In this document: positions 2,227-48,258 of the stretch, one piece after another
Layout of the letters: each line of letters begins with the position of its first letter
Numbering within the stretch: position 1 is the first letter of the stretch
IMG/VR virus record: IMGVR_UViG_3300030687_000017
Source of the DNA: a virus
Length of the DNA stretch: 64,000 nt
Strand: one strand, 5' to 3'
Program-made: the position numbers and the translations under genes
Notes under the pieces: model-generated
What the model saw: the letters and a program-made list of their open reading frames with translations, nothing else
What the model was told of the DNA's origin: nothing
Databases searched by the model: none

Positions 2227-2520
2227 ATGCCTCAAGGAAACTTCGCAGTGTCCGGTGCGACCGGAACTTCATTTGGCTTCGCAAGTACGGCGGTCGTCCT
2301 GCCCGGATCGGGAACGCTGCTTCGCGTGACGAACCTCGGTCCATGCCACATCACCGTGGCCATCGGCGGTTCCGGCGTAACCGTGAACCAAGGCAATGGA
2401 CTTGTGATCGCAGCCGGTCAGACCGAGTGGCTTACAGTCACGGCGGGTCAGTTCATCGCCGGAGTCGCGGCAGGTGGTCCCGGCAACGCGTCCACATGCA
2501 ATTTGGCCACTGGTACTTAG
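2227..2520 (+). CDS. hypothetical protein (Gly/Thr-rich, 97 aa)
   Basis: Strong RBS AAGGAG then ATG; clean ORF ending just before the tRNA. Confidence 0.55.
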   Translation: MPQGNFAVSGATGTSFGFASTAVVLPGSGTLLRVTNLGPCHITVAIGGSGVTVNQGNGLVIAAGQTEWLTVTAGQFIAGVAAGGPGNASTCNLATGT

Positions 2521-2521
2521 C

Positions 2522-2595
2522 TTCGGCCTTGTCCAATGGTAGGACAAACGGTTTTGATCCGTTGAATCGGAGTTCGAATCTCTGGGCCGAAACCA
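2522..2595 (+). tRNA. tRNA-Gln (anticodon UUG)
   Basis: Manual cloverleaf: acceptor TTCGGCC/GGCCGAA; D-arm GTCC-AATGGTA-GGAC; anticodon stem AACGG/CCGTT with loop TTTTGAT (anticodon TTG); variable loop 4 nt; T-arm CGGAG-TTCGAAT-CTCTG (one G-U); discriminator A and encoded CCA. Confidence 0.8.
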
Positions 2596-2615
2596 ACATA
2601 GAAAAGGAGGGCGTC

Positions 2616-3887
2616 ATGCCCATGAAGAACGGAAGACGAGTGGGCGACGACATCGAGCCGGTCGGCGAGGCCGACCCCGAGCGCGCCCTTGCGTTGGCGA
2701 AGCATGAGGAGGGCCTGACGCAGTCGCAGGACCGGCACAGGGCGAAGGACGTCCTCCCCGTCCCCATCAAGACCTCCAGCCTGGTTCCGCTTCCCTCCGG
2801 AGAGCGCAACGAGGTCTCGTACGCGTCCGACCTGGCCGACCCCGACGACATGACGCTGCCCGAGCTCGAGAAGGAAATCAACTCGCTGCTGTCCAAGTAC
2901 AAGCGAACCAAGCTGGAAGAGGCTCGCTTGCGGTTCCTTACCGACGCCGAAATGGACAAGAAGCGCAAGGCCACCAAGACCACCGACGGGCGTTCGCGCG
3001 ACCGCGGCCGTTTCGTGAAGATGCGCGATTCGAAAGAAAAGACAAAGGCGACAGACATGCTACGAACCAACCTGAATGAGCAGCGCAGTGGCTCCGAACC
3101 GGCCGACCACCTCTTCCGCGCCGCACAGTACGAGATCGGCGGCGACCGCGCTCGCGCCCTAGACTCATACCGCGCCGCAGCCGGTGGCTACCGTCGCGCG
3201 GGCGATCAAGCTGGCGAGCAGAAGGCCAAGGATGGCATCATGTTTTGTCAGTCCGCGTTCGACACGCAGTACGACCACCCCGGCATCGGACGCGTCCGCG
3301 TGTGCGACTCGGTTGACATCGCGCTGCGTACTGCGCTGGAGCGCACCCGCGCCGGAGAGCAGGTTCACGTCGAAGGCAAGACGGTTCGTCCGGGGTTCGC
3401 GCGCGCCAAAGATGGTGCACTACACGCCTACGTGCCCGACAAAGATGACCGATGCGCAATTTGTGGCCGTCCTGCTAATGACAGTTCTACGCACAAAGAC
3501 GCCGCACAATATGACGCGCATGGTCGTGATGCTGCCGGAGCTTGTGAAAACTGCGGTGCCAAAACTTCGGGAGACAATTTCCTGTGTGGAAAATGCCGTG
3601 CTAAGGCAAAGGACGACACCGGCGGACCTCCTCCTGTGGACAATCCAGCCACTCCCGCCGTGCCGGATCCGGTGCCGACGGGGGATGCCATCACACCCGA
3701 GGAGAAGAAAGAACTTGCCGAGTTGAAGTCGTATCGCGGTCCAAACGGCAAATACTCGCTGACGAAAGAACAACGAGCCCGTGAAGTCGAGCTGTTGAAG
3801 AGAGCAAGGCAACCGTTCAAAGACTCAGACTTGAAGGCCTCAGACAAAGCCAAGGCCAGCGACAAGAGGGAGGTTCAACCCGTATGA
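2616..3887 (+). CDS. hypothetical virion-module protein (charged, with Cys-rich zinc-ribbon segment)
   Basis: ATG at 2616 after AAGGAGG, start MPMKNGRR. The longer ORF 2343.. would overlap the tRNA. Internal CAICG...CENCG...CGKC cluster; K/E/D-rich termini. Confidence 0.55.
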   Translation: MPMKNGRRVGDDIEPVGEADPERALALAKHEEGLTQSQDRHRAKDVLPVPIKTSSLVPLPSGERNEVSYASDLADPDDMTLPELEKEINSLLSKYKRTKLEEARLRFLTDAEMDKKRKATKTTDGRSRDRGRFVKMRDSKEKTKATDMLRTNLNEQRSGSEPADHLFRAAQYEIGGDRARALDSYRAAAGGYRRAGDQAGEQKAKDGIMFCQSAFDTQYDHPGIGRVRVCDSVDIALRTALERTRAGEQVHVEGKTVRPGFARAKDGALHAYVPDKDDRCAICGRPANDSSTHKDAAQYDAHGRDAAGACENCGAKTSGDNFLCGKCRAKAKDDTGGPPPVDNPATPAVPDPVPTGDAITPEEKKELAELKSYRGPNGKYSLTKEQRAREVELLKRARQPFKDSDLKASDKAKASDKREVQPV

Positions 3888-7470: not shown

Positions 7471-7500
7471 AATGCCGGTGTCGTAGTCAAATTCGCTAAG

Positions 7501-7518
7501 ACGAGCTATAATTAATGC
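7501..7518 (+). promoter_or_regulatory. -10 element ACGAGCTATAAT immediately upstream of the HNH gene (leaderless-type arrangement)
   Basis: TATAAT at 7507-7512, ATG at 7519 only 6 nt downstream; the same GAGCTATAAT+N6+ATG geometry recurs at 9743-9761. Confidence 0.45.
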
Positions 7519-8046
7519 ATGGCTAAACCTAAGCATTCTATAGCTCGTCTACGCGAAGTTCTTGACTATAAACCACGTAAAGGCATCTTTGTATGGAAAA
7601 TTCATACAAAGTGTCAAGGTAGATTTATAAACCCTGGTGATCGGGCAGGCAGCACTCCAACTGGTAGATCTGATGACAGAATAGGCATAGGATTTGAGGG
7701 TAGGCAGTATCGCGCTCACATCTTAGCTTACGCTTTTATGAAAGGTCGTTGGCCGCCTAAAGGAAAGCTCGTTGACCATCACGATGGCAACGGCGCTAAC
7801 AATAAGCGGACAAATTTGCGCGAAGCAACGCGCACACAGAATCGCTGGAACACACGTCGACTTCGTAAGAGTAATAGTAGCGGTAAGGCCGGTGTTTCGT
7901 GGAATTCACACAACCAGAAGTGGCTGTCGCAAATTGTCGTTCATGGTAAATGCCATGAGAACAAGCTGTTCATAGATAAAGACAAAGCGATTGCGCATCG
8001 TCTAATGCTGGAGAAGAAGTACTTCGGCGAATACGCACCACAGTAA
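7519..8046 (+). CDS. HNH homing endonuclease with AP2 DNA-binding domain
   Basis: HNH motif VDHHDGNGANNKRTNLREAT..QN; AP2-like GKAGVSWNSHNQKWLSQIVVHGK; gene lies in a visibly AT-richer island between structural genes. Confidence 0.8.
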   Translation: MAKPKHSIARLREVLDYKPRKGIFVWKIHTKCQGRFINPGDRAGSTPTGRSDDRIGIGFEGRQYRAHILAYAFMKGRWPPKGKLVDHHDGNGANNKRTNLREATRTQNRWNTRRLRKSNSSGKAGVSWNSHNQKWLSQIVVHGKCHENKLFIDKDKAIAHRLMLEKKYFGEYAPQ

Positions 8047-8059
8047 ATTAACCGCCGTA

Positions 8060-8094
8060 CAAATGCCCAACGACATAAACGCGTTGGGCATTTG
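8060..8094 (+). terminator. stem-loop (13-bp perfect stem) downstream of the HNH gene
   Basis: CAAATGCCCAACG ... CGTTGGGCATTTG inverted repeat; no clear T-tract follows, so the terminator role is uncertain. Confidence 0.35.
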
Positions 8095-8228
8095 TACGTT
8101 CGGACTCGATTTTCAACACAAGGTTGCGTAGGCAGCGTGGCGCTGAGTAAGGTGCCTCCTTGCCGCCAGGCTCTTCTGCCCCTGTCTACGCAGCACTACA
8201 ACCCAAGCAGCAAGGAGAATACAACGTT

Positions 8229-36511: not shown

Positions 36512-36519
36512 ACAAGTAA

Positions 36520-36578
36520 GACCCGGCTGGCTGGTACTCAGAACATCGAGTGCCAGCCAGCCGGGTCTTTTGTCGTTT
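36520..36578. terminator. bidirectional rho-independent terminator at the convergence point of the two modules
   Basis: 15-bp GC-rich stem GACCCGGCTGGCTGG/CCAGCCAGCCGGGTC with 18-nt loop, followed by TTTTGTCGTTT on + and preceded by an A/T-poor but stable context on -. Confidence 0.7.
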
Positions 36579-40801: not shown

Positions 40802-40965
40802 GCCGTGCCTCCCATCATCTTCCGTACGACGACGCGGTAATCCTCCGTGCCGCTCTTGTGCGCGTCCTCCACCAGTTTGCGATTACCACGCCGCACCCAC
40901 CGGTTGAAGCAGCCAAGGTTACAGAACCGATTCGCACACTTCTTCTTGCAATTTTCGCACTTCAT
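40798..40965 (-). CDS. 55-aa Cys-rich (zinc-ribbon-like) peptide, translationally coupled between glycosyltransferase and kinase
   Basis: Own translation: MKCENCKKKCANRFCNLGCFNRW...; ATGA overlap with GT stop and TGA/GTG overlap with the kinase start. Below the 60-aa cutoff of the ORF track. Confidence 0.3.
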   Translation of the reverse strand: MKCENCKKKCANRFCNLGCFNRWVRRGNRKLVEDAHKSGTEDYRVVVRKMMGGTA

Positions 40966-41885
40966 GCCGTCACCGCTTTCTTTGCTGCCTTCCGTACGCT
41001 TGGAACCTTGGGCTGAGCCAGAGAGGAGAGGTAAGCCTTCTTCCAGGCTACCACGACCTCCTTACGCACAGCCGTCGTGGTGTACGCGCGGTCCACCACC
41101 TTCACGAAGCCGGGGTGTAGCTTGGCCAACTCGAAGCACTGGGCGTCGCTGTACTCCATACTGCGCTCGCCGCTGCACCCTCCCGCCGCGCCGAATGTGC
41201 CGTACTCGTTGTTGAGTAGCTCGACGTAGTTGTGGCACTCATGGCCTTTACGCAACATGGACAACACCACGTGGAAGTCCTCGCGCAGACCTATGGCGTC
41301 GAAGCGAATCTTCTCTTTGAGATAGAGCTCTCGGTTGACACCGAAAGCATACATCATCCTTGCGTTCTTCTCCCACGCCGCTTTCTTCTTGTCAGAGTGA
41401 CGCCGATGCGCGATGCCGATCATACCGAGGTCGTGCTCTTTACCAGCGTAGGAATCCATCTCCTGGAATAGCTTCAAGAGGACCTTGTCCTTAGGATAGC
41501 GACGCATCATCAGCGAGGTTCCAGCCGGTGCGTCCGGAGCTACGGCGTACGCCTTGCGATGCTCCTCCCACACGCGCCACTTAGCCGGGCAGCGCTCGAA
41601 GAACGCCAGGTCGTCGTCCATCATAAATAGAAACTTGCCGGCTACGTTCTTCATAATCCAGTGACGCTTCGTAGCGATGGATGTAGTGCCCTTGGCTGTA
41701 AGCACTTGGTTAGCCGGGTACAGCTTCTTCAGCGCCTTGGCTTCGTCAGGCAACGAAGCCACGAGGATGACCTCGGCCTGGAGCGCAGTCGGCAGCGCCT
41801 GGAGCGTTATCTGCTTGTTAACACGACCGTGCGTGGGGATGATGAGTGTTAGGTTTTTCAGGATCGTTCTCCTCTTACGTGGCAA
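40962..41885 (-). CDS. putative GT-A fold glycosyltransferase
   Basis: N-terminal LTLIIPTHGR (GT2-like start) and acidic FLFMMDDDLAFF (DxD-type) motif. Confidence 0.45.
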   Translation of the reverse strand: MPRKRRTILKNLTLIIPTHGRVNKQITLQALPTALQAEVILVASLPDEAKALKKLYPANQVLTAKGTTSIATKRHWIMKNVAGKFLFMMDDDLAFFERCPAKWRVWEEHRKAYAVAPDAPAGTSLMMRRYPKDKVLLKLFQEMDSYAGKEHDLGMIGIAHRRHSDKKKAAWEKNARMMYAFGVNRELYLKEKIRFDAIGLREDFHVVLSMLRKGHECHNYVELLNNEYGTFGAAGGCSGERSMEYSDAQCFELAKLHPGFVKVVDRAYTTTAVRKEVVVAWKKAYLSSLAQPKVPSVRKAAKKAVTA

Positions 41886-41916
41886 AGGCGTCTAAGACAC
41901 CCGGGGAAATACAAAG

Positions 41917-41940
41917 ACGCCCGATGTTCTGGGCGTCTCA
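41917..41940 (-). terminator. hairpin AGACGCCC-N8-GGGCGTCT between the 64-aa gene and the glycosyltransferase gene (possible attenuator/terminator)
   Basis: 8-bp perfect inverted repeat; T-rich TTGTATTT follows on the - strand. Confidence 0.3.
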
Positions 41941-42232: not shown

Positions 42233-43792
42233 CTACTCGATGACGGACAGGTAGCCCTGCTTCACCAGCCACGCCACTTCCAGCTTGCGACCGCTGGGAT
42301 TCAGCTTGGACTTGTCCAGCTTGGCCTGAGCCTCGCTCACGGTCTTGGAGCCGATGATGGCCTCAACTTGACCGTAGCAGAAGCTGCCTTCGCGGGGCAA
42401 CGACTCCGACTTCAACGTTACTAACGCCTTGATCTTGCGATCGGCGGCTGCGGCGCGCGGTGCCTTGTCGGCCTTCTTGGTTACGGTTGCCTTGACCTTG
42501 GTCGTGACAGCGTTCTTCGCGGTCTTCTTGGCTGTTCCAGCGGGAGGTGCGAATTTCTGCTTCTTGGTTTCAACGGTTGCAGTGGTCATGATGTTCTCCT
42601 TGCAGTGATCTAACACCGCTGTAAGGTGGCGTTCAGCCACGGACGAAACTACAACTCCAGCCGTAATGGGGTGTAGTAACTGATTTACGTCTCTCACTAG
42701 ATCGCTACTTGTGATCTGACGCAGTGTTCTCAGAACTTCTGTCGGTACTACTCCGGCAGCAACGCGACTCCCGTTATTATACACGCAAATCGCGCCCTGC
42801 GAATTGGGTTTTTCCAACTGTAGCAAAACGATACCATTATTGGGATCTTCCAGCAGGAATATCTCGTCCAGGTTGACGTAGATATCAGCATCCGACTTCG
42901 GCTGCGCCATTGGCATGTTCGCCGTTTCGCGCTCCGCACGCTTGACTCGTGCCGCCAGTTCCAGCTTGAAATCGGCGCTGTCCTTGGCTTCTTGCTTCTT
43001 GTTCATCTTCTTGGGCGCGTCCAGGATCGGCTTGCCATCGAATACGACGCGGGTGTGTACCGTCTTCCGAAGCTCGTCAGCGATTACAGCCTTCTCTACC
43101 TTCGCTACCGCGCGCTCCGTCTTGCTGGCACTCTTCGCGAGCTCCATGCACTTCGCGCTGAATGCCGACTCCATACCGGCCACGGACGACTTCGCGATGC
43201 CGAGCGCGACGTAGAACTCGGTCAGCACTTTGTTGACGCCGCTCTCCTTGACCAGTACCTTGTCAGTCTTACGTAGCAGCTTCAGAAGCTGCACGCGCGC
43301 CTTGTAGTTGGCGTCGCCAGCCAGATCGCTGATGCGATACTTGCCAGCCGTCAGCTTACGTAGCGCGTCCAGCGCGGCCACGACGTTGCTAGGTAACGGA
43401 GCCGGTCCCTTAGCGTCGTACATGGTCTTTACGAATTGCTGAGCGTTCTTGCCTTCAGCCGTGGAGCCGTCCGCAAACTTCACCTGCCACGCGGTGTTGA
43501 TGCTGGACGAACTGCCAGCGTGCGTGAATAGAAGCGCCGCACCGTCTTCGCGTGTATAGCCATGAGCGGTATTGTTATCTACCTCCTCAGTGCGGCTGTA
43601 TACGAATCCGGCCTTGACGAACGCCTGAGTCAGCGGCGTTACGGGCGCGGTGGGAGCGAGCGACTTATTGTGGATGTCGTGCGTGGCTACGACTGTTTCG
43701 CCCTTAGCCGTCTTGATCAACTTCTTGCCAACAGCCTTGACAGCTTTCGCGCTCGGTGCTGCCTTGATGTTCTTCAGGATTGACTTTGCCAT
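42233..43792 (-). CDS. hypothetical Lys/Ala-rich protein (about 519 aa), possibly nucleic-acid-binding
   Basis: ATG 43792 (MAKSILKNIK) overlapping the upstream TAA preferred over GTG 43804; long basic low-complexity C-terminal region. Confidence 0.45.
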   Translation of the reverse strand: MAKSILKNIKAAPSAKAVKAVGKKLIKTAKGETVVATHDIHNKSLAPTAPVTPLTQAFVKAGFVYSRTEEVDNNTAHGYTREDGAALLFTHAGSSSSINTAWQVKFADGSTAEGKNAQQFVKTMYDAKGPAPLPSNVVAALDALRKLTAGKYRISDLAGDANYKARVQLLKLLRKTDKVLVKESGVNKVLTEFYVALGIAKSSVAGMESAFSAKCMELAKSASKTERAVAKVEKAVIADELRKTVHTRVVFDGKPILDAPKKMNKKQEAKDSADFKLELAARVKRAERETANMPMAQPKSDADIYVNLDEIFLLEDPNNGIVLLQLEKPNSQGAICVYNNGSRVAAGVVPTEVLRTLRQITSSDLVRDVNQLLHPITAGVVVSSVAERHLTAVLDHCKENIMTTATVETKKQKFAPPAGTAKKTAKNAVTTKVKATVTKKADKAPRAAAADRKIKALVTLKSESLPREGSFCYGQVEAIIGSKTVSEAQAKLDKSKLNPSGRKLEVAWLVKQGYLSVIE

Positions 43793-43793
43793 G

Positions 43794-43949
43794 TTAGCGT
43801 CCACCCTTCGCGATGGCGGCTTCGGTGAACTGGATCATGCGGGCGAGGTTCTCAGCCTTCTTGAACTCTTCCTGCGCGATGCGGCTGATGAGTGCTGACT
43901 TGAGAAGTTCGAGGGAGTTCTTGCGCTTCTGTTGCATGGACTGTGGCAT
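43794..43949 (-). CDS. 51-aa hypothetical peptide
   Basis: AAGGAGAAAC RBS then ATG 43949; MPQSMQQKRKNSLELLK... Confidence 0.3.
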   Translation of the reverse strand: MPQSMQQKRKNSLELLKSALISRIAQEEFKKAENLARMIQFTEAAIAKGGR

Positions 43950-44015
43950 TTTGTTTCTCCTTAGCGGCCTGTACCGCTATATCTACGAAGGTTAGAGAGG
44001 CGTGAAGACGAGCTA

Positions 44016-44399
44016 CTAGCGGCTGGAAGCAATGAACGACTGCGCGGCGTCCAGGGTGGTGAATGCAACCAGCGTGGCACCAGCGTGAAGGTGAGCGTAC
44101 CACGTACCGTTAGGAGAGCAATCGACCGTCGCGATCAGCTTGCCGGCCGAACGGAACTCGTACGTAGTGGGCGACGCCTTGTACCAACCGTTACCTACCA
44201 CTACGAGCTTCGCACCCGGCTTGATCGGACCGTCGTTCGCGAAGAGCGACGCGGTAACGGGCTGAGCGGTAGGCACTACGAATGACGTAGACGGCGCGGT
44301 GGTGGCGAGCGACACCGGCTTGACGGTCGGGGTCTGTGACAGACCGATGGAGGCGATTCCAACTAGGGCGGCGATTGTGAGTTTATCGGTGAGGTTCAT
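44016..44399 (-). CDS. small secreted protein (signal peptide), operator-controlled
   Basis: MNLTDKLTIAALVGIASIGLS... signal-like N-terminus; RBS AAAGGAGC; preceded by -10 AGTATAAT plus inverted-repeat operator. Confidence 0.5.
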   Translation of the reverse strand: MNLTDKLTIAALVGIASIGLSQTPTVKPVSLATTAPSTSFVVPTAQPVTASLFANDGPIKPGAKLVVVGNGWYKASPTTYEFRSAGKLIATVDCSPNGTWYAHLHAGATLVAFTTLDAAQSFIASSR

Positions 44400-44448
44400 T
44401 TGAGGCTCCTTTTGAGTGGCTTCTTGCCACTGAAATGATTATACTCCA

Positions 44449-44494
44449 GAAAACAGAGAATCTGAAAACTATTTTTCTGGAGTGCAACTGGCCC
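44449..44494 (-). promoter_or_regulatory. promoter (-10 TATAAT at 44454..44449) with overlapping operator CTCCAGAAAA-N19-TTTTCTGGAG
   Basis: Perfect 10-bp inverted repeat at 44456-44465 / 44485-44494 immediately upstream of the -10; same half-site as the 45579-45608 element. Confidence 0.5.
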
Positions 44495-44506
44495 AATTTC
44501 AACGAC

Positions 44507-45538
44507 TTAGCTTAGATTTCCAGCAGTCTTACCAGACTTCAGCTGGTCGTCAAGGCCGATTTTCTCCGCCGTTGCCGACCCGGCCCGATACGCTCCGTGG
44601 TCACGTCGCGAAGCTTCACGATACGCCTTGCGATCCTGAGCCTCCCAATACCGTTCGCTGTACTTAGCGCGCCGTTCCGCTTCACGCGCTTCCGCTTTCA
44701 GACGCTTGGCTTTCTGCGCAGGCGTTTCCAGTGCCAATTTCGCTTCCAGTTCCGCGAGCTCCTTGGCTTCGCGTTCAGCGTTCAACTTGTCCTGCGCGGC
44801 CCAACGCTCTTCGTTCGCCTTCATACGTGCGGCGCGCGCCGCCCACGCACCCGCGCCGTTCTGGAAGTCGTAGTTCCCGATCTCCTCAGCGGTAGCGACG
44901 TTCCGTAACGCGATGGCCGTGGTGTAAGCAGCTTCTCCCTGAGTGGCGTAATCCGCTTTCTTCATGGCTTCGGCCTTCGCCTGGATGCGCTGAATCAGAC
45001 GATCAGAGCAGCCCTCGCGCCAGCTGCTAGCCGACCGGCTGAGTCGCTCTTTCTGTTCGTACGGTAGTAGACGTTCAATCGTGTCCATCAAGTAGTCCAC
45101 CATCATCAAGACCGACATCGTGTTGGCGGTGCGTCCAAGCACCTTATGACGCTTCACCCAACGCTTCTGCATGGCCTCGTCATCATCGTACTTCCGTTTG
45201 CTCTTCGGAATGTAGAGCTCTTCCTGTACCTCGGCCGTCCAGTAGATGCAGTAGTTCGCCTCGGCCAAAGCGCGCACAAGATTCCGCTGCCACTGGTACA
45301 TGGCTGAACGCTTCGTTACGGCGTAATCACGCTTCGCCATGGCGTCGTCCGGCGTGTTCGTACCGCCCTTGACGACTTTGTCTTGTACGGTGGCGAGGTC
45401 CAGGTTGTACTGTGCTAGAAGCTCTTGAGCCTTCGCCATGGCGGCGGCGGCTTCCACTTCGTTACCAGCGGCGCGCTCTGCGAGTTGGAGGAGGAGTTGA
45501 ATCTTGCGGACGATGTTTTCTGAGATCACTTCAGGCAT
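44507..45538 (-). CDS. hypothetical protein (DUF2786-like N-terminus; coiled-coil K/E/A/R-rich C-terminus)
   Basis: IVRKIQLLLQLAERAAGNEVEAAAAMAKAQELL resembles the DUF2786 start; RBS AAGGAGCG. Confidence 0.45.
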   Translation of the reverse strand: MPEVISENIVRKIQLLLQLAERAAGNEVEAAAAMAKAQELLAQYNLDLATVQDKVVKGGTNTPDDAMAKRDYAVTKRSAMYQWQRNLVRALAEANYCIYWTAEVQEELYIPKSKRKYDDDEAMQKRWVKRHKVLGRTANTMSVLMMVDYLMDTIERLLPYEQKERLSRSASSWREGCSDRLIQRIQAKAEAMKKADYATQGEAAYTTAIALRNVATAEEIGNYDFQNGAGAWAARAARMKANEERWAAQDKLNAEREAKELAELEAKLALETPAQKAKRLKAEAREAERRAKYSERYWEAQDRKAYREASRRDHGAYRAGSATAEKIGLDDQLKSGKTAGNLS

Positions 45539-45567
45539 TGGGTAGCGCTCCTTGTGCGCTGATTAGG

Positions 45568-45608
45568 ATTATAGCTCGTTTTCTGGAACTACGACTTTCT
45601 CCAGAAAA
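45568..45608 (-). promoter_or_regulatory. promoter (-10 CGAGCTATAAT at 45578..45568) with adjacent operator TTTTCTGGA-N12-TCCAGAAAA
   Basis: Inverted repeat 45579-45587 / 45600-45608 directly upstream of the -10, over the -35 region; 29 nt from the -10 to ATG 45538. Confidence 0.5.
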
Positions 45609-45757
45609 TCTGGATTCGCGAACACCAACCGGCCATCCGCTTTGTGCCGAATCGCCAAAAGCCCGTCATCCTCCAGACGACCATTCACTACGACCGCCTG
45701 GAACGACGTTCCATTGGGCGCTGTATACACGACCTCAGTCCCACGATCCGGTGTCAT
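45569..45757 (-). CDS. hypothetical small protein (62 aa)
   Basis: ORF ending inside the operator region; weak. Confidence 0.3.
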   Translation of the reverse strand: MTPDRGTEVVYTAPNGTSFQAVVVNGRLEDDGLLAIRHKADGRLVFANPDFLEKVVVPENEL

Positions 45758-46050
45758 CCCGCCCTCCTCAGCGCCGCGCGGAACAGGTCGTCGAACGTCG
45801 TCCAGCCGTTGCCGACCACCTCAGTTACCGCACGCTGCGCTACCTTCTTCTTGTAACCGAGATTCATCAACGCGCTGATCACATCGTCGGTCAACGTGGA
45901 ATGCTCTACGCGCTGCGTGCGTTCCACTTTGAGCTCAGCCGTAATCAGTGGGCGCTTCTTCGCTTGATGCAGGCGGTAGATCGCCAGCCACAGCAGCCAC
46001 ATCGTGAGTATGTTCGTTACGAATAGTAGGAAGATCATCGCCGTCTCCAC
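45754..46050 (-). CDS. small membrane protein (N-terminal TM helix)
   Basis: METAMIFLLFVTNILTMWLLWLAIY then a hydrophilic tail. Confidence 0.4.
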   Translation of the reverse strand: METAMIFLLFVTNILTMWLLWLAIYRLHQAKKRPLITAELKVERTQRVEHSTLTDDVISALMNLGYKKKVAQRAVTEVVGNGWTTFDDLFRAALRRAG

Positions 46051-46226
46051 TCATTCAGTGCCAACCGCACAAAGTACGCCGTCTTCACGCCGTACTGCGT
46101 TTGAAGTTCGTGGAGGGTCGTGGTCATAGTCGCAGCGTGCTTATCGCTGGAAAGCGTGATTTCTTGTCCATGCGGTATGATCAGGTTGTACTCCGTGCCG
46201 TTGACGACCACGCGTTGTTTAGCCAT
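46035..46226 (-). CDS. hypothetical small protein (63 aa)
   Basis: ORF with coupled neighbours. Confidence 0.35.
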   Translation of the reverse strand: MAKQRVVVNGTEYNLIIPHGQEITLSSDKHAATMTTTLHELQTQYGVKTAYFVRLALNEWRRR

Positions 46227-46398
46227 GGAGGAACTCCCTCTTCGTTGGCTGTACCAGCCGCGCGTTCTTTCCGCCGATGCGGATGTACGCGTCCTCTACA
46301 GTGGACCGCCACTTGTCAACTTCGAATGGCGAATCCAGTACGCGCGCTAGGACGACTTCAAGCTCTTCCAAGGTGATTGGATCGCTCAAGAGTTTCAT
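46219..46398 (-). CDS. hypothetical small protein (59 aa)
   Basis: Own translation MKLLSDPITLEELEVVLARVL...; overlaps the next start. Confidence 0.3.
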   Translation of the reverse strand: MKLLSDPITLEELEVVLARVLDSPFEVDKWRSTVEDAYIRIGGKNARLVQPTKREFLHG

Positions 46399-46615
46399 GC
46401 AAACCCCTTGTACTCCGAGAGATCCAAACGCTCCGGTTCGCGGTAGAACTTCTTACAATCGCTGCAGAATCCGCTGGATGGTAGCTTCCGATGATGCGTT
46501 GGGCACGTTGGATATTGCTCCCAATGCGGCGCGCACGACGAACAGAAGTCGCGCATAGAGTGGCCGGCAAGACCGTCGTTGGTAACGCCGGGGCAAGGAA
46601 CCATGACGGAGAATG
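46395..46615 (-). CDS. Cys-rich small protein (73 aa)
   Basis: MSKPFSVMVPCPGV...CSSCAPHW...CPTHH...CSDCKK; ATGA-coupled to the upstream gene. Confidence 0.35.
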
Positions 46616-46621
46616 GCTTAC

Positions 46622-46822
46622 TCATCTCGCTCCAATCCGCGCTTTTGCCAGCGCCAGTAAGCATTGTTCCATGTTGATAAGCAACTTTTCTTCGCTGATG
46701 TCTAGAGTTTCAAACTGACTGTCACGAAGCGAGTTAATGTGATCGGCCATTGTCTTGAAACGCTTAGAGAGAATAGTGGAGCGTCTTTGCTCTGCAGCTA
46801 TGCGTCTAGATTGTTCACTCAT
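46622..46822 (-). CDS. hypothetical small protein (66 aa)
   Basis: ORF; part of a run of coupled small genes. Confidence 0.35.
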   Translation of the reverse strand: MSEQSRRIAAEQRRSTILSKRFKTMADHINSLRDSQFETLDISEEKLLINMEQCLLALAKARIGAR

Positions 46823-47043
46823 AGCCGCGCCTCCGCATCCACTTCAAACTCGTGCTGGTGGTAGTGCCATTTGACGTAGGAGCCGATGGTACCGTCGAAC
46901 GACTCCTTGAACTTCAAGCCCTGTTCCCGCCAGCGCGGCTCGCGGCCCTTCCAGTCCACGACGGCGGCGAACTCGGCGAACTGCTCGGATGAGTAGACGC
47001 CTATCGGATAGTCGTTCAGGCAAAGGACGGTGAGCTTAGGCAT
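46819..47043 (-). CDS. hypothetical small protein (about 75 aa)
   Basis: Start taken at internal ATG 47043 (MPKLTVLCLNDY...); the Arg-rich upstream extension is judged non-coding. Confidence 0.35.
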   Translation of the reverse strand: MPKLTVLCLNDYPIGVYSSEQFAEFAAVVDWKGREPRWREQGLKFKESFDGTIGSYVKWHYHQHEFEVDAEARL

Positions 47044-47253
47044 CGCTGGCCGCCTTCTTTGCGCACGTGCAAGGCTGCGCGGTCCAGCCACTAGTCTTCG
47101 TCGACTTCTGAGCTTCTGGACACCAATAAGCCCACACACCGTATTCAGAACGTTCACCACGCATGCGCCCTTTACAGTTCGCAACGCGTGTCTTGTGATG
47201 CCGTGCCATTATCTTTGTCATGTCTTGGCGGCCCCTTCAGTCCGCTGAAAACA

Positions 47254-47445
47254 TTATACCTCTGAACGCAGCTTCTCGCGGAGTTTACGTAAAACTCCAA
47301 GAAAATACGCATTGTGCTTGACGAACGGCTTGTTGCCGTCACGCACGGCAACGTACTGCGCTTGACGCATCTCAGTTGCCAACAGGTCTAATCCGCGCAG
47401 TAACATCGTGACCTCTTCTTCGGTGTACTCTTGCTCAAAGGTCAT
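47254..47445 (-). CDS. hypothetical small acidic protein (63 aa)
   Basis: ATG 47445 after GGGAGGA RBS; MTFEQEYTEEEVTML... Confidence 0.4.
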   Translation of the reverse strand: MTFEQEYTEEEVTMLLRGLDLLATEMRQAQYVAVRDGNKPFVKHNAYFLGVLRKLREKLRSEV

Positions 47446-47936
47446 ACCATCCTCCCTGCACACTCGGGGCCAAGACCCGCCGCGATGGAGCCTGGAACCG
47501 TAAGCTTCCGACCGCACCGACCGCACGCTCCCTCATGCCAGACCGCCAGCGTATCGCCAAGCACCTCGCGCCCACACTTCATGGCGTCCACGAACCAGAC
47601 CAGCGCCTTGTACGCCGCCGCTTGCCGGCCGACCTTGCCGCTGGTAGCCGTCCAGAAGAAGCGCGCCGGGTCTTTACGAAGAACACCCATGTACGCAAAG
47701 TCCGACGTGTTGTCGGGGCCACGCAGTAGGTTTGCGAAGTACACAGTGTCGTCGGCCGGATTCTCTTTGCGCTTGGTGACCTTGTACGTGAAGCGTACGC
47801 CCGTCTTCAGCGACACCAGGGTGAACGTCGCCTTGCCGGCAAAGATGAATGCCTGGACCTCGGCCCACGTAGCCAAGAGTCCAGGCTGCGGCACTACTTC
47901 TACCGCGTTTACGGGGAGTTCCAGCTGCTCAACCAT
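47442..47936 (-). CDS. hypothetical protein with C-terminal zinc-ribbon (CGRCGRKLT...GLGPEC), DUF6011-like
   Basis: ATG 47936 after GGGAGG RBS; C-terminal CxxC...GxGPxC pattern. Confidence 0.4.
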   Translation of the reverse strand: MVEQLELPVNAVEVVPQPGLLATWAEVQAFIFAGKATFTLVSLKTGVRFTYKVTKRKENPADDTVYFANLLRGPDNTSDFAYMGVLRKDPARFFWTATSGKVGRQAAAYKALVWFVDAMKCGREVLGDTLAVWHEGACGRCGRKLTVPGSIAAGLGPECAGRMV

Positions 47937-48219
47937 TGGAGACCTCCCGCAGGAACTTCTCAACGTCCTTGTTCAACTTGCTGTCAACGCGAAGCTGGGC
48001 TTGCGCACGTTTCAGTAGCGCAATAGCGCACGGTAGACAGCTAAACTTCTTTACGCGCTCCTTCTGCGCGGCATCCCACTTGGCGCTTCGCTCTTCAGCT
48101 TTCCTAGCCACATTTTCTGGATTGTGCTGCGTACAGTAACCGCCCACGCATGCGGCGCGTAAGCACGAGCGCATACTAACGCTGCGCCCACCCATGGGAA
48201 CTCTCGCGATGCAGTTCAT
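47929..48219 (-). CDS. Cys-rich hypothetical protein (96 aa)
   Basis: RBS AGGAGG 10 nt upstream; preceded by -10 GCGCTATAAT. Confidence 0.4.
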   Translation of the reverse strand: MNCIARVPMGGRSVSMRSCLRAACVGGYCTQHNPENVARKAEERSAKWDAAQKERVKKFSCLPCAIALLKRAQAQLRVDSKLNKDVEKFLREVSNG

Positions 48220-48250: not shown

Positions 48251-48258
48251 ATTATAGC
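48251..48258 (-). promoter_or_regulatory. -10 element GCGCTATAAT
   Basis: Reverse complement of attatagc; 31 nt upstream of ATG 48219 with AGGAGG RBS between. Confidence 0.4.

Follow-up and report, generated by a model that had tools for sequence, protein, structure and literature searches.

The window, i.e., the whole 64,000-nt stretch of DNA analysed here, represents most of a phage genome of ~100 kb. Its structural genes are located on the plus strand up to about 36.5 kb, followed from 36.8 kb onward by genes for replication and DNA modification and small open reading frames (ORFs) on the minus strand. The structural Pfam domains of the phage were E217/PB1-like and not T4-like, no close cultured relatives were found, and dozens of contigs from metagenomes carried the identical genome. 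Some features outside the locus of interest were recorded as well. A tRNA gene (Rfam RF00005, 56 bits) was detected at 2522–2592 (+) inside a listed 514-aa ORF (2343–3887), so that the 5′ part of this ORF is probably non-coding. At 7489–7560 (+), a 22-nt, 86% inverted repeat (GCTAAGACGAGCTATA / TATAGCTCGTCTACGC) surrounds the start codon of gene 7519–8046 together with a TATAAT (7507) and may represent a hairpin that controls translation or transcription within the structural module, and 17-bp perfect arms are found past the same gene (8056–8098). Arms of 22 bp with 95% complementarity at 36518–36569, where the plus- and minus-strand gene blocks converge, probably form a bidirectional terminator. 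Furthermore, the phage encodes a protein of the TAGT (Tet-associated glycosyltransferase) family at 40962–41885 (−), while relatives harbor GATase/ADDT/aGPT-Pplase-type genes in the same place instead (L207, 6548+; L208, 6324+), which points to DNA being hypermodified in different ways within a single phage family.

The locus under study lies in a gap of 107 nt that separates the gene for a 343-aa protein with DUF2786 and DUF7168 domains (44507–45538, −; more than 100 metagenome relatives of the DUF2786 protein) from an ORF of 127 aa (44016–44399, −). On the minus strand, the sequence of the gap is TAA-GTCGTTGAAATTGGGCCAGTTGC-ACTCCAGAAAA-ATAGTTTTCAGATTCTCTG-TTTTCTGGAGT-ATAAT-CATTTC-AGTGGCaagaaGCCACT-CAAAAGGAGCCTCAA-ATG. 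It contains a perfect 11-bp inverted repeat with a 19-nt gap, ACTCCAGAAAA (44443–44453) / TTTTCTGGAGT (44473–44483), here termed IR-1, which starts 24 nt past the stop codon (TAA) of the DUF2786 gene. On the minus strand, the distal box or arm (44473–44483) reads ACTCCAGAAAA and covers about −52 to −42 from the inferred start site, the spacer (44454–44472) holds a −35-like TTCAGA and a degenerate third box (GTTTTCAGA), and the proximal box or arm (44443–44453) reads TTTTCTGGAGT, its last T being the first T of the −10 hexamer. All 11 positions of the two arms are complementary, the half-site centres are 30 bp apart, and the dyad, as in an operator, overlaps the core promoter, with its centre (44463) on the −35 hexamer TTCAGA (44466–44461). 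The consensus of the boxes is a-CTCCAGAAAA. The original prediction had described this repeat as CTCCAGAAAA-N19-TTTTCTGGAG at 44449–44494, with perfect arms of 10 bp ending 1–2 nt upstream of the TATAAT. That sequence is present and its arms are indeed perfect, but it spans 44444–44482, the range given being off by about 5–11 nt, and one extra base pair on each side extends the arms to 11 bp; the arms do cover the −35 and spacer region, while the proximal one runs into the hexamer itself.

The promoter proposed at this position is well supported. TTCAGA-17-TATAAT (44466–44438, −) was the top sigma-70-like match within 40–50 kb (10/12), and its −10 hexamer (44438–44443) is found 72–74 nt past the stop codon of the DUF2786 gene in seven related lineages (66–76% protein identity), so that the spacing from the stop codon is conserved. 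A TTGCAC block (44482–44487, −) is conserved in all relatives at 37–38 nt upstream of the TATAAT; it shares bases with the outer end of the distal box. Downstream of the −10 hexamer, a leader hairpin AGTGGC-AAGAA-GCCACT (44415–44431, −) occupies the predicted transcript 5′ end, and a Shine–Dalgarno (SD) sequence AAGGAG (44411–44406) and the ATG at 44399 come next. The operon begun at 44443 is closed by a canonical intrinsic terminator at 41914–41939 (−), which served as a comparison for IR-1. A further TATAAT with a TTCGCA as −35 (10/12) at 42776–42781 (−), inside a 523-aa gene, is kept in relatives as well; since it lies within a conserved peptide, ICVYNNG, its conservation may be due to coding only.

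The same combination of promoter and leader was identified at about 20 of 26 family promoters and at four to six places within the window, while the stem box is common to IR-1, the repeat IR-2 and, weakly, the repeat IR-3 only. The cassette consists of TATAAT, 6–8 nt, a 4–8-bp hairpin at the predicted mRNA 5′ end, 5–10 nt, and AUG. Its hairpin often has the form GCGGnC...GnCCGC, a purine-rich SD sequence (UGAAGGGA) is located in the loop or the 3′ arm, and the stem varies in sequence while its pairing is kept. Cassette sites were recorded in the window at 48256, 47258, 45573, and 44443 (minus strand) and in relatives L002, L066, L068, L071, L072, and L207–L209. RNAalifold revealed no consensus for the leader hairpins because their alignment registers differ, and they were assessed by per-sequence folding.

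The 127-aa ORF comprises an N-terminal hydrophobic, signal-like segment, a Pro/Thr-rich linker, and a C-terminal beta domain (predicted model with a pLDDT of about 75). It had been called a signal-peptide protein, and an N-terminal signal sequence does appear plausible by eye. It revealed no protein-family match, its low-to-moderate-confidence model had no significant match in the PDB, and a single close homologue (70% identity) was found among 5.8 billion proteins. This homologue (L006) has another context, on a 1-kb contig ending 67 nt upstream, and is uninformative as to whether repeat and gene travel together. Residues ~65–127 have distant matches to a tandem-repeat module, of which giant proteins without a characterised function contain up to 21 copies, namely P0124 (1864 aa, E 6e-13) and P0125 (3525 aa). 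With one close homologue and neither a family nor a significant fold match, the superinfection-exclusion or receptor-masking function suggested for this ORF is pure speculation; as to superinfection exclusion, nothing speaks for it and nothing excludes it.

Taken by itself, IR-1 is not beyond chance at the scale of the window, since an 11-bp perfect inverted repeat (gap ≤60 nt) is expected 1.09 times in random sequence of 64 kb and the same composition, and 58% of simulated 64-kb sequences contained at least one. Its arms could thus have no separate function and consist of promoter A/T tracts, i.e., the UP-like AGAAAATAAA and a T-rich spacer, plus some bases complementary by chance, the other copies of the box being coding coincidences. 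The A-rich tract (AGAAAATAAA) and a T- or A-tract 4–5 nt before the TATAAT are family-wide promoter features, the AGAAAA and TTTCT tracts occupy the same promoter positions in relatives, and the k-mers enriched at family promoters are generic A/T tracts. Because the AGAAAA/TTTTCT parts of the arms coincide with these tracts, the phage-specific portion of each arm (ACTCC/GGAGT) amounts to only about 5 bp. IR-1 itself is not conserved among relatives (L071, L002, L068, and L207), and three of the five copies of the box described below lie inside ORFs. Within its own 72-nt intergenic region, however, none of 300 shuffles reached 11 bp. This result, together with the excess of a 9-mer box and its clustering near TATAAT boxes, argues that IR-1 is non-random, and we consider an incidental repeat unlikely.

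The search for further half-sites that had been suggested with the original prediction was positive and revealed a second inverted pair of TCCAGAAAA upstream of the next promoter. The 9-mer TCCAGAAAA occurs five times in the window against 0.28 expected copies, a number reached in none of 100 shuffles. All five copies lie within 3.7 kb (44445–48121), four of them preceding two TATAAT boxes by no more than about 45 nt, and an additional 8.9 kb of this genome, taken from a contig identical to it, contain no copy. Such an excess and clustering are not expected of an incidental repeat. The second repeat, IR-2 (45579–45616, −), reads TCCAGA-TTT-TCTGGA-G-AAAGTCGTAGT-TCCAGAAAA and is formed by the last codons of a 62-aa ORF, in translated sequence 8 nt ahead of the stop codon. 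Its exact 9-bp arms, TTTTCTGGA (45608–45600) and TCCAGAAAA (45587–45579), are separated by N12 with centres 21 bp apart, and it ends 5 nt ahead of a TATAAT at 45573–45568. This TATAAT is followed by the family leader hairpin and has the position of a promoter for the DUF2786 gene (P45573), with a perfect −10 and no −35 match. The half-sites of IR-1 are convergent with a gap of 19/21 nt, while those of IR-2 are divergent with a gap of 12 nt. Nevertheless, the dyad centres are located 20.0 nt (IR-1) and 20.5 nt (IR-2) upstream of the first T of the respective TATAAT, an equal placement that also speaks against coincidence.

The copies in IR-2 are written in minority codons: given the peptide, the probability of both 9-mers together is about 0.013 × 0.023. 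Coding copies of the box are thus under selection at the nucleotide level, which is again difficult to reconcile with coding coincidences. Comparison of the two promoter regions revealed no similarity beyond the boxes and the TATAAT, so that selection on the box sequence is favoured over a recent duplication. A weaker related repeat, IR-3 (47272–47305, −; TTTTCTTGGAGTTT-tacgt-AAACTCCGCGAGAAG), is coding and has the same GGAGT/ACTCC cores, with its centre 31 nt upstream of a TATAAT at 47258–47253; being degenerate, it was given low weight. The fifth exact copy of TCCAGAAAA (48113–48121, −) lies within a 96-aa ORF (codons N-P-E-N) with no adjacent promoter. Exact-pattern scans of IMG/VR for IR-1 (the repeat; left arm plus TTGC; right arm plus TATAAT) resulted in unrelated chance matches only, and all available genomes of the source phage are identical, so that no substitution pattern in the arms could be obtained. 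In two of the TATAAT boxes of this region (47253–47258 and 45568–45573), the TAA also serves as the stop codon of the upstream ORF, as it does in L002 at 1588.

Comparison with relatives showed that the gene slot 3′ of the DUF2786 gene is different in every lineage (compared regions: window 43950–44506; L002 5039–5373; L066 5054–5415; L068 5024–5527; L071 1792–2479). Between the DUF2786 gene and a conserved gene of ~520 aa, the phage of the window carries ORFs of 127 and 51 aa, other lineages encode small membrane peptides, and L212 and L213 have no ORFs there. The region behaves like a hyperplastic 'moron' slot with promoter cassettes at its borders. In L211 (1800–1850), a conserved CTAAGTCACTGA at the DUF2786 stop and an inserted inverted copy of it, TCAGTGACTTAG, form a 12-bp perfect hairpin at the gene end. 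TCCAGA is in weak excess at family promoters (6 against 1.5 expected), which is driven by the source phage.

The position of IR-1 shortly past a stop codon on the same strand, as is typical of a terminator, also suits a different explanation, namely an RNA hairpin ending the upstream transcription unit as part of a composite terminator/promoter. Such cassettes were described in T4-like phages as promoter-early stem-loops or PeSLs (Arbiol 2010, PMC2839356; Comeau 2014, PMC4122927; the definition of the latter is followed here). Accordingly, read-through RNA from the DUF2786 gene would fold into an 11-bp stem (−15 kcal/mol) leading to inefficient termination or 3′-end protection, the overlapping TATAAT would restart transcription for the variable slot, and the stem shared by IR-1 and IR-2 would reflect cassette homology. 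The calculated stability of the IR-1 hairpin (−15.2 kcal/mol) is near that of the bona fide terminator at 41939 (−16.4 kcal/mol), and a 76-nt region around it folds with z = −2.5. At the homologous junction of L066, the stem is a different one, perfect and 12 bp long (GCACCGCTGAAA/TTTCAGCGGTGC), with TTTTTCT behind it. This is a terminator of textbook form, and in the alignment its left arm and T tract fall on the two arms of IR-1. A canonical terminator abuts a TATAAT in L207 (2949), and in L208, L209, and L211, perfect repeats of 8–12 bp adjoin the same stop codon. Moreover, the 61 nt upstream of the 26 family promoters fold above background in general (mean z −1.29 vs. −0.25; Mann–Whitney p = 0.0014), and PeSLs share this architecture, flank variable ORFs, and have a stem consensus within a genome (PMC4122927).

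On the other hand, the loop of IR-1 comprises 19 nt compared to 3–8 nt in terminators, only four of the 11 stem pairs are G-C, terminator stems being G+C-rich and about 5–14 bp long, no U tract follows the stem (tail AUAAUCAUUU), the T tract TTTTCT being located inside the 3′ arm, and IR-1 is not listed by the terminator scan. IR-2 is situated inside translated sequence ahead of a stop codon, and four exact copies of one 9-mer in two arrangements are not explained by structure alone. In L071 and L072, furthermore, the distal box is exact (GTTGCACTCCAGAAAA) and a second ACTCCAGA is present in direct orientation (p = 0.02), so that both boxes are kept while the potential for a hairpin is lost, which counts for recognition of the boxes themselves; L002 has only a weak version of the repeat. 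We regard the composite terminator/promoter as the main alternative explanation of IR-1, albeit one more doubtful than probable.

If the boxes are recognized, this could in principle occur on RNA, by a phage- or host-encoded RNA-binding protein or nuclease, e.g., at a processing or antitermination signal. In read-through RNA, they do lie on the transcribed strand in contexts able to form hairpins, and each contains GGAG/CUCC, which is reportedly the sort of short motif used by some phage endoribonucleases, such as RegB of T4. Since the boxes appear in both orientations, only half of them would present the same RNA sequence, and their fixed positions relative to the −10 hexamers indicate a frame at the DNA level. 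Searches against Rfam revealed no RNA family at the boxes, either at the gathering threshold in the whole window or at E ≤ 1 in the region of 43.8–48.4 kb. We therefore judge reading on RNA to be very improbable. Some known types of site were also considered and rejected. Hairpin promoters of the N4 type have a 5–7-bp stem with a 3-nt loop and require a virion RNA polymerase, while an 11-bp stem, a 19-nt loop, and an ordinary TATAAT are found here. A sigma-54 promoter at the conserved GGTTGCAC lacks a GG at the required 10-bp spacing, and partial matches to CRP/FNR-, Fur-, DnaA-, and IHF-like sites stem from the TATAAT or A/T tracts (both by eye).

We favour the reading that IR-1 and IR-2 are sequence-specific boxes for a trans-acting factor, most likely one repressing two consecutive promoters, although our confidence in it stays somewhat below an even chance. 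Sequence-specific recognition is preferred because a structure would not need identical stems and because the arrangement of the arms differs between the two sites. Two layers appear to be superimposed at the locus, i.e., a hairpin/promoter junction at the level of the family, which bounds the variable slot, and a phage-specific box, TCCAGAAAA, which occurs four times at two promoters. Accordingly, the boxes of IR-1 would overlie the conserved terminator/promoter junction, where the sigma-70-type promoter would drive the 'moron' slot with the 127-aa ORF. A phage- or host-encoded protein would bind the boxes on double-stranded DNA and act there rather than on RNA, and both dyads are positioned about 20 nt upstream of the −10 hexamer, i.e., about −32 from the start site. 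Bound proximal boxes, located in the spacer and at IR-1 touching the −10, would be expected to hinder RNA polymerase and so to co-repress the two consecutive promoters; this occupancy makes repression the likelier sign. As P45573 has a perfect −10 and no match to a −35, a factor acting around −32 is also plausible.

Against the box reading, the centre-to-centre distance of 30 bp at IR-1 is unusual, unrelated hairpins occur at the same junction in relatives, and promoter-upstream windows are structured in general. Since orientation and spacing differ between IR-1 and IR-2, one rigid dimer cannot bind both alike. The claim that repression by a dedicated DNA-binding protein is implied therefore goes too far, in view of this non-dimeric geometry, the unrelated hairpins, and the lack of a recognisable binding protein nearby. 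None of the small ORFs put forward as candidates (45569–45757, 46035–46226, and 43794–43949) revealed a recognisable DNA-binding domain, and no helix-turn-helix, ribbon-helix-helix, or other DNA-binding family was detected in the neighbouring ORFs using Pfam, PHROGs, and NCBIfam. The model of the conserved 63-aa protein (46035–46226), of low-to-moderate confidence, displays an SH3-like barrel and two helices and has no significant structural match in the PDB. Tentatively, and with more doubt than belief, one may think of an undescribed system of transcription factor and operator in an uncultivated ~100-kb soil/peat myovirus lineage, whose reader protein would have no recognisable DNA-binding domain. 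Such a factor might read 9–11-bp ACTCCAGAAAA boxes in either orientation and at various spacings, always symmetric about −32 of consecutive promoters, and might thereby switch a block of middle genes including the variable slot for secreted proteins. Altogether, IR-1 is real but of an ordinary kind, and it probably acts as a small regulatory site, specific to this phage, at a terminator/promoter junction.

Should the boxes prove to be a genuine regulatory site, they would offer a way to study how genes are regulated in a widespread, uncultured lineage of ~100-kb phages, and a 41-bp bait could then serve to isolate a regulator of unknown fold. The modular cassette of the family (hairpin, TATAAT, SD-bearing leader hairpin, and ATG) resembles the PeSLs, which are thought to drive gene shuffling in T4-like phages, and would extend this idea to unrelated phages. 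Current understanding is overturned by neither point.

With respect to known systems, the PeSL cassettes resemble the locus in that a stem-loop immediately precedes or overlaps a sigma-70-like promoter, with an A/T-rich part upstream and an SD sequence and start codon downstream, in that stems within a genome share sequence, and in that the cassettes flank small variable ORFs with no known function. The source phage is not T4-like, however, and it has two to three related copies instead of dozens; in addition, the stem of IR-1 overlaps the −35 rather than preceding it, the arms are arranged differently at two copies, and an extra conserved 5′-leader hairpin is present past the −10. Compared to an intrinsic terminator joined to a promoter, the hairpin just past a stop codon is alike, and L066 and L207 have textbook terminators at the homologous position, with T tracts extending into the next promoter's spacer, but IR-1 differs by its 19-nt loop, A/U-rich stem, and T tract within the 3′ arm.

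The operators of lambda (OR/OL), P22, and 434 are dyads over promoters with half-site centres about 10 bp apart. IR-1 is similar to them in its dyad over the −35 and spacer and in the reuse of the half-site at more than one promoter. The differences concern the half-sites, which are 30 bp apart (21 bp at IR-2) and inconstant in orientation, and the repressor gene, none being recognised; with no integrase in 73 kb, the source phage looks virulent. In phage phi29, the p4 sites are A-tract inverted repeats of roughly CTTTTT-N15-AAAATG that overlap or adjoin the −35 regions of promoters. The boxes described here are unrelated to them in sequence, a p4-like protein was not detected, and IR-1 has the opposite polarity and a wider spacing. 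Nevertheless, both systems display widely spaced T/A-tract inverted repeats at the −35 regions of a virulent phage, and IR-2 (TTTTCTGGA-N12-TCCAGAAAA, centres 21 bp apart) has the polarity and spacing of a p4 site. IR-1 belongs to known kinds of elements, i.e., a promoter-overlapping regulatory repeat or a terminator/promoter cassette, in an uncultured phage.
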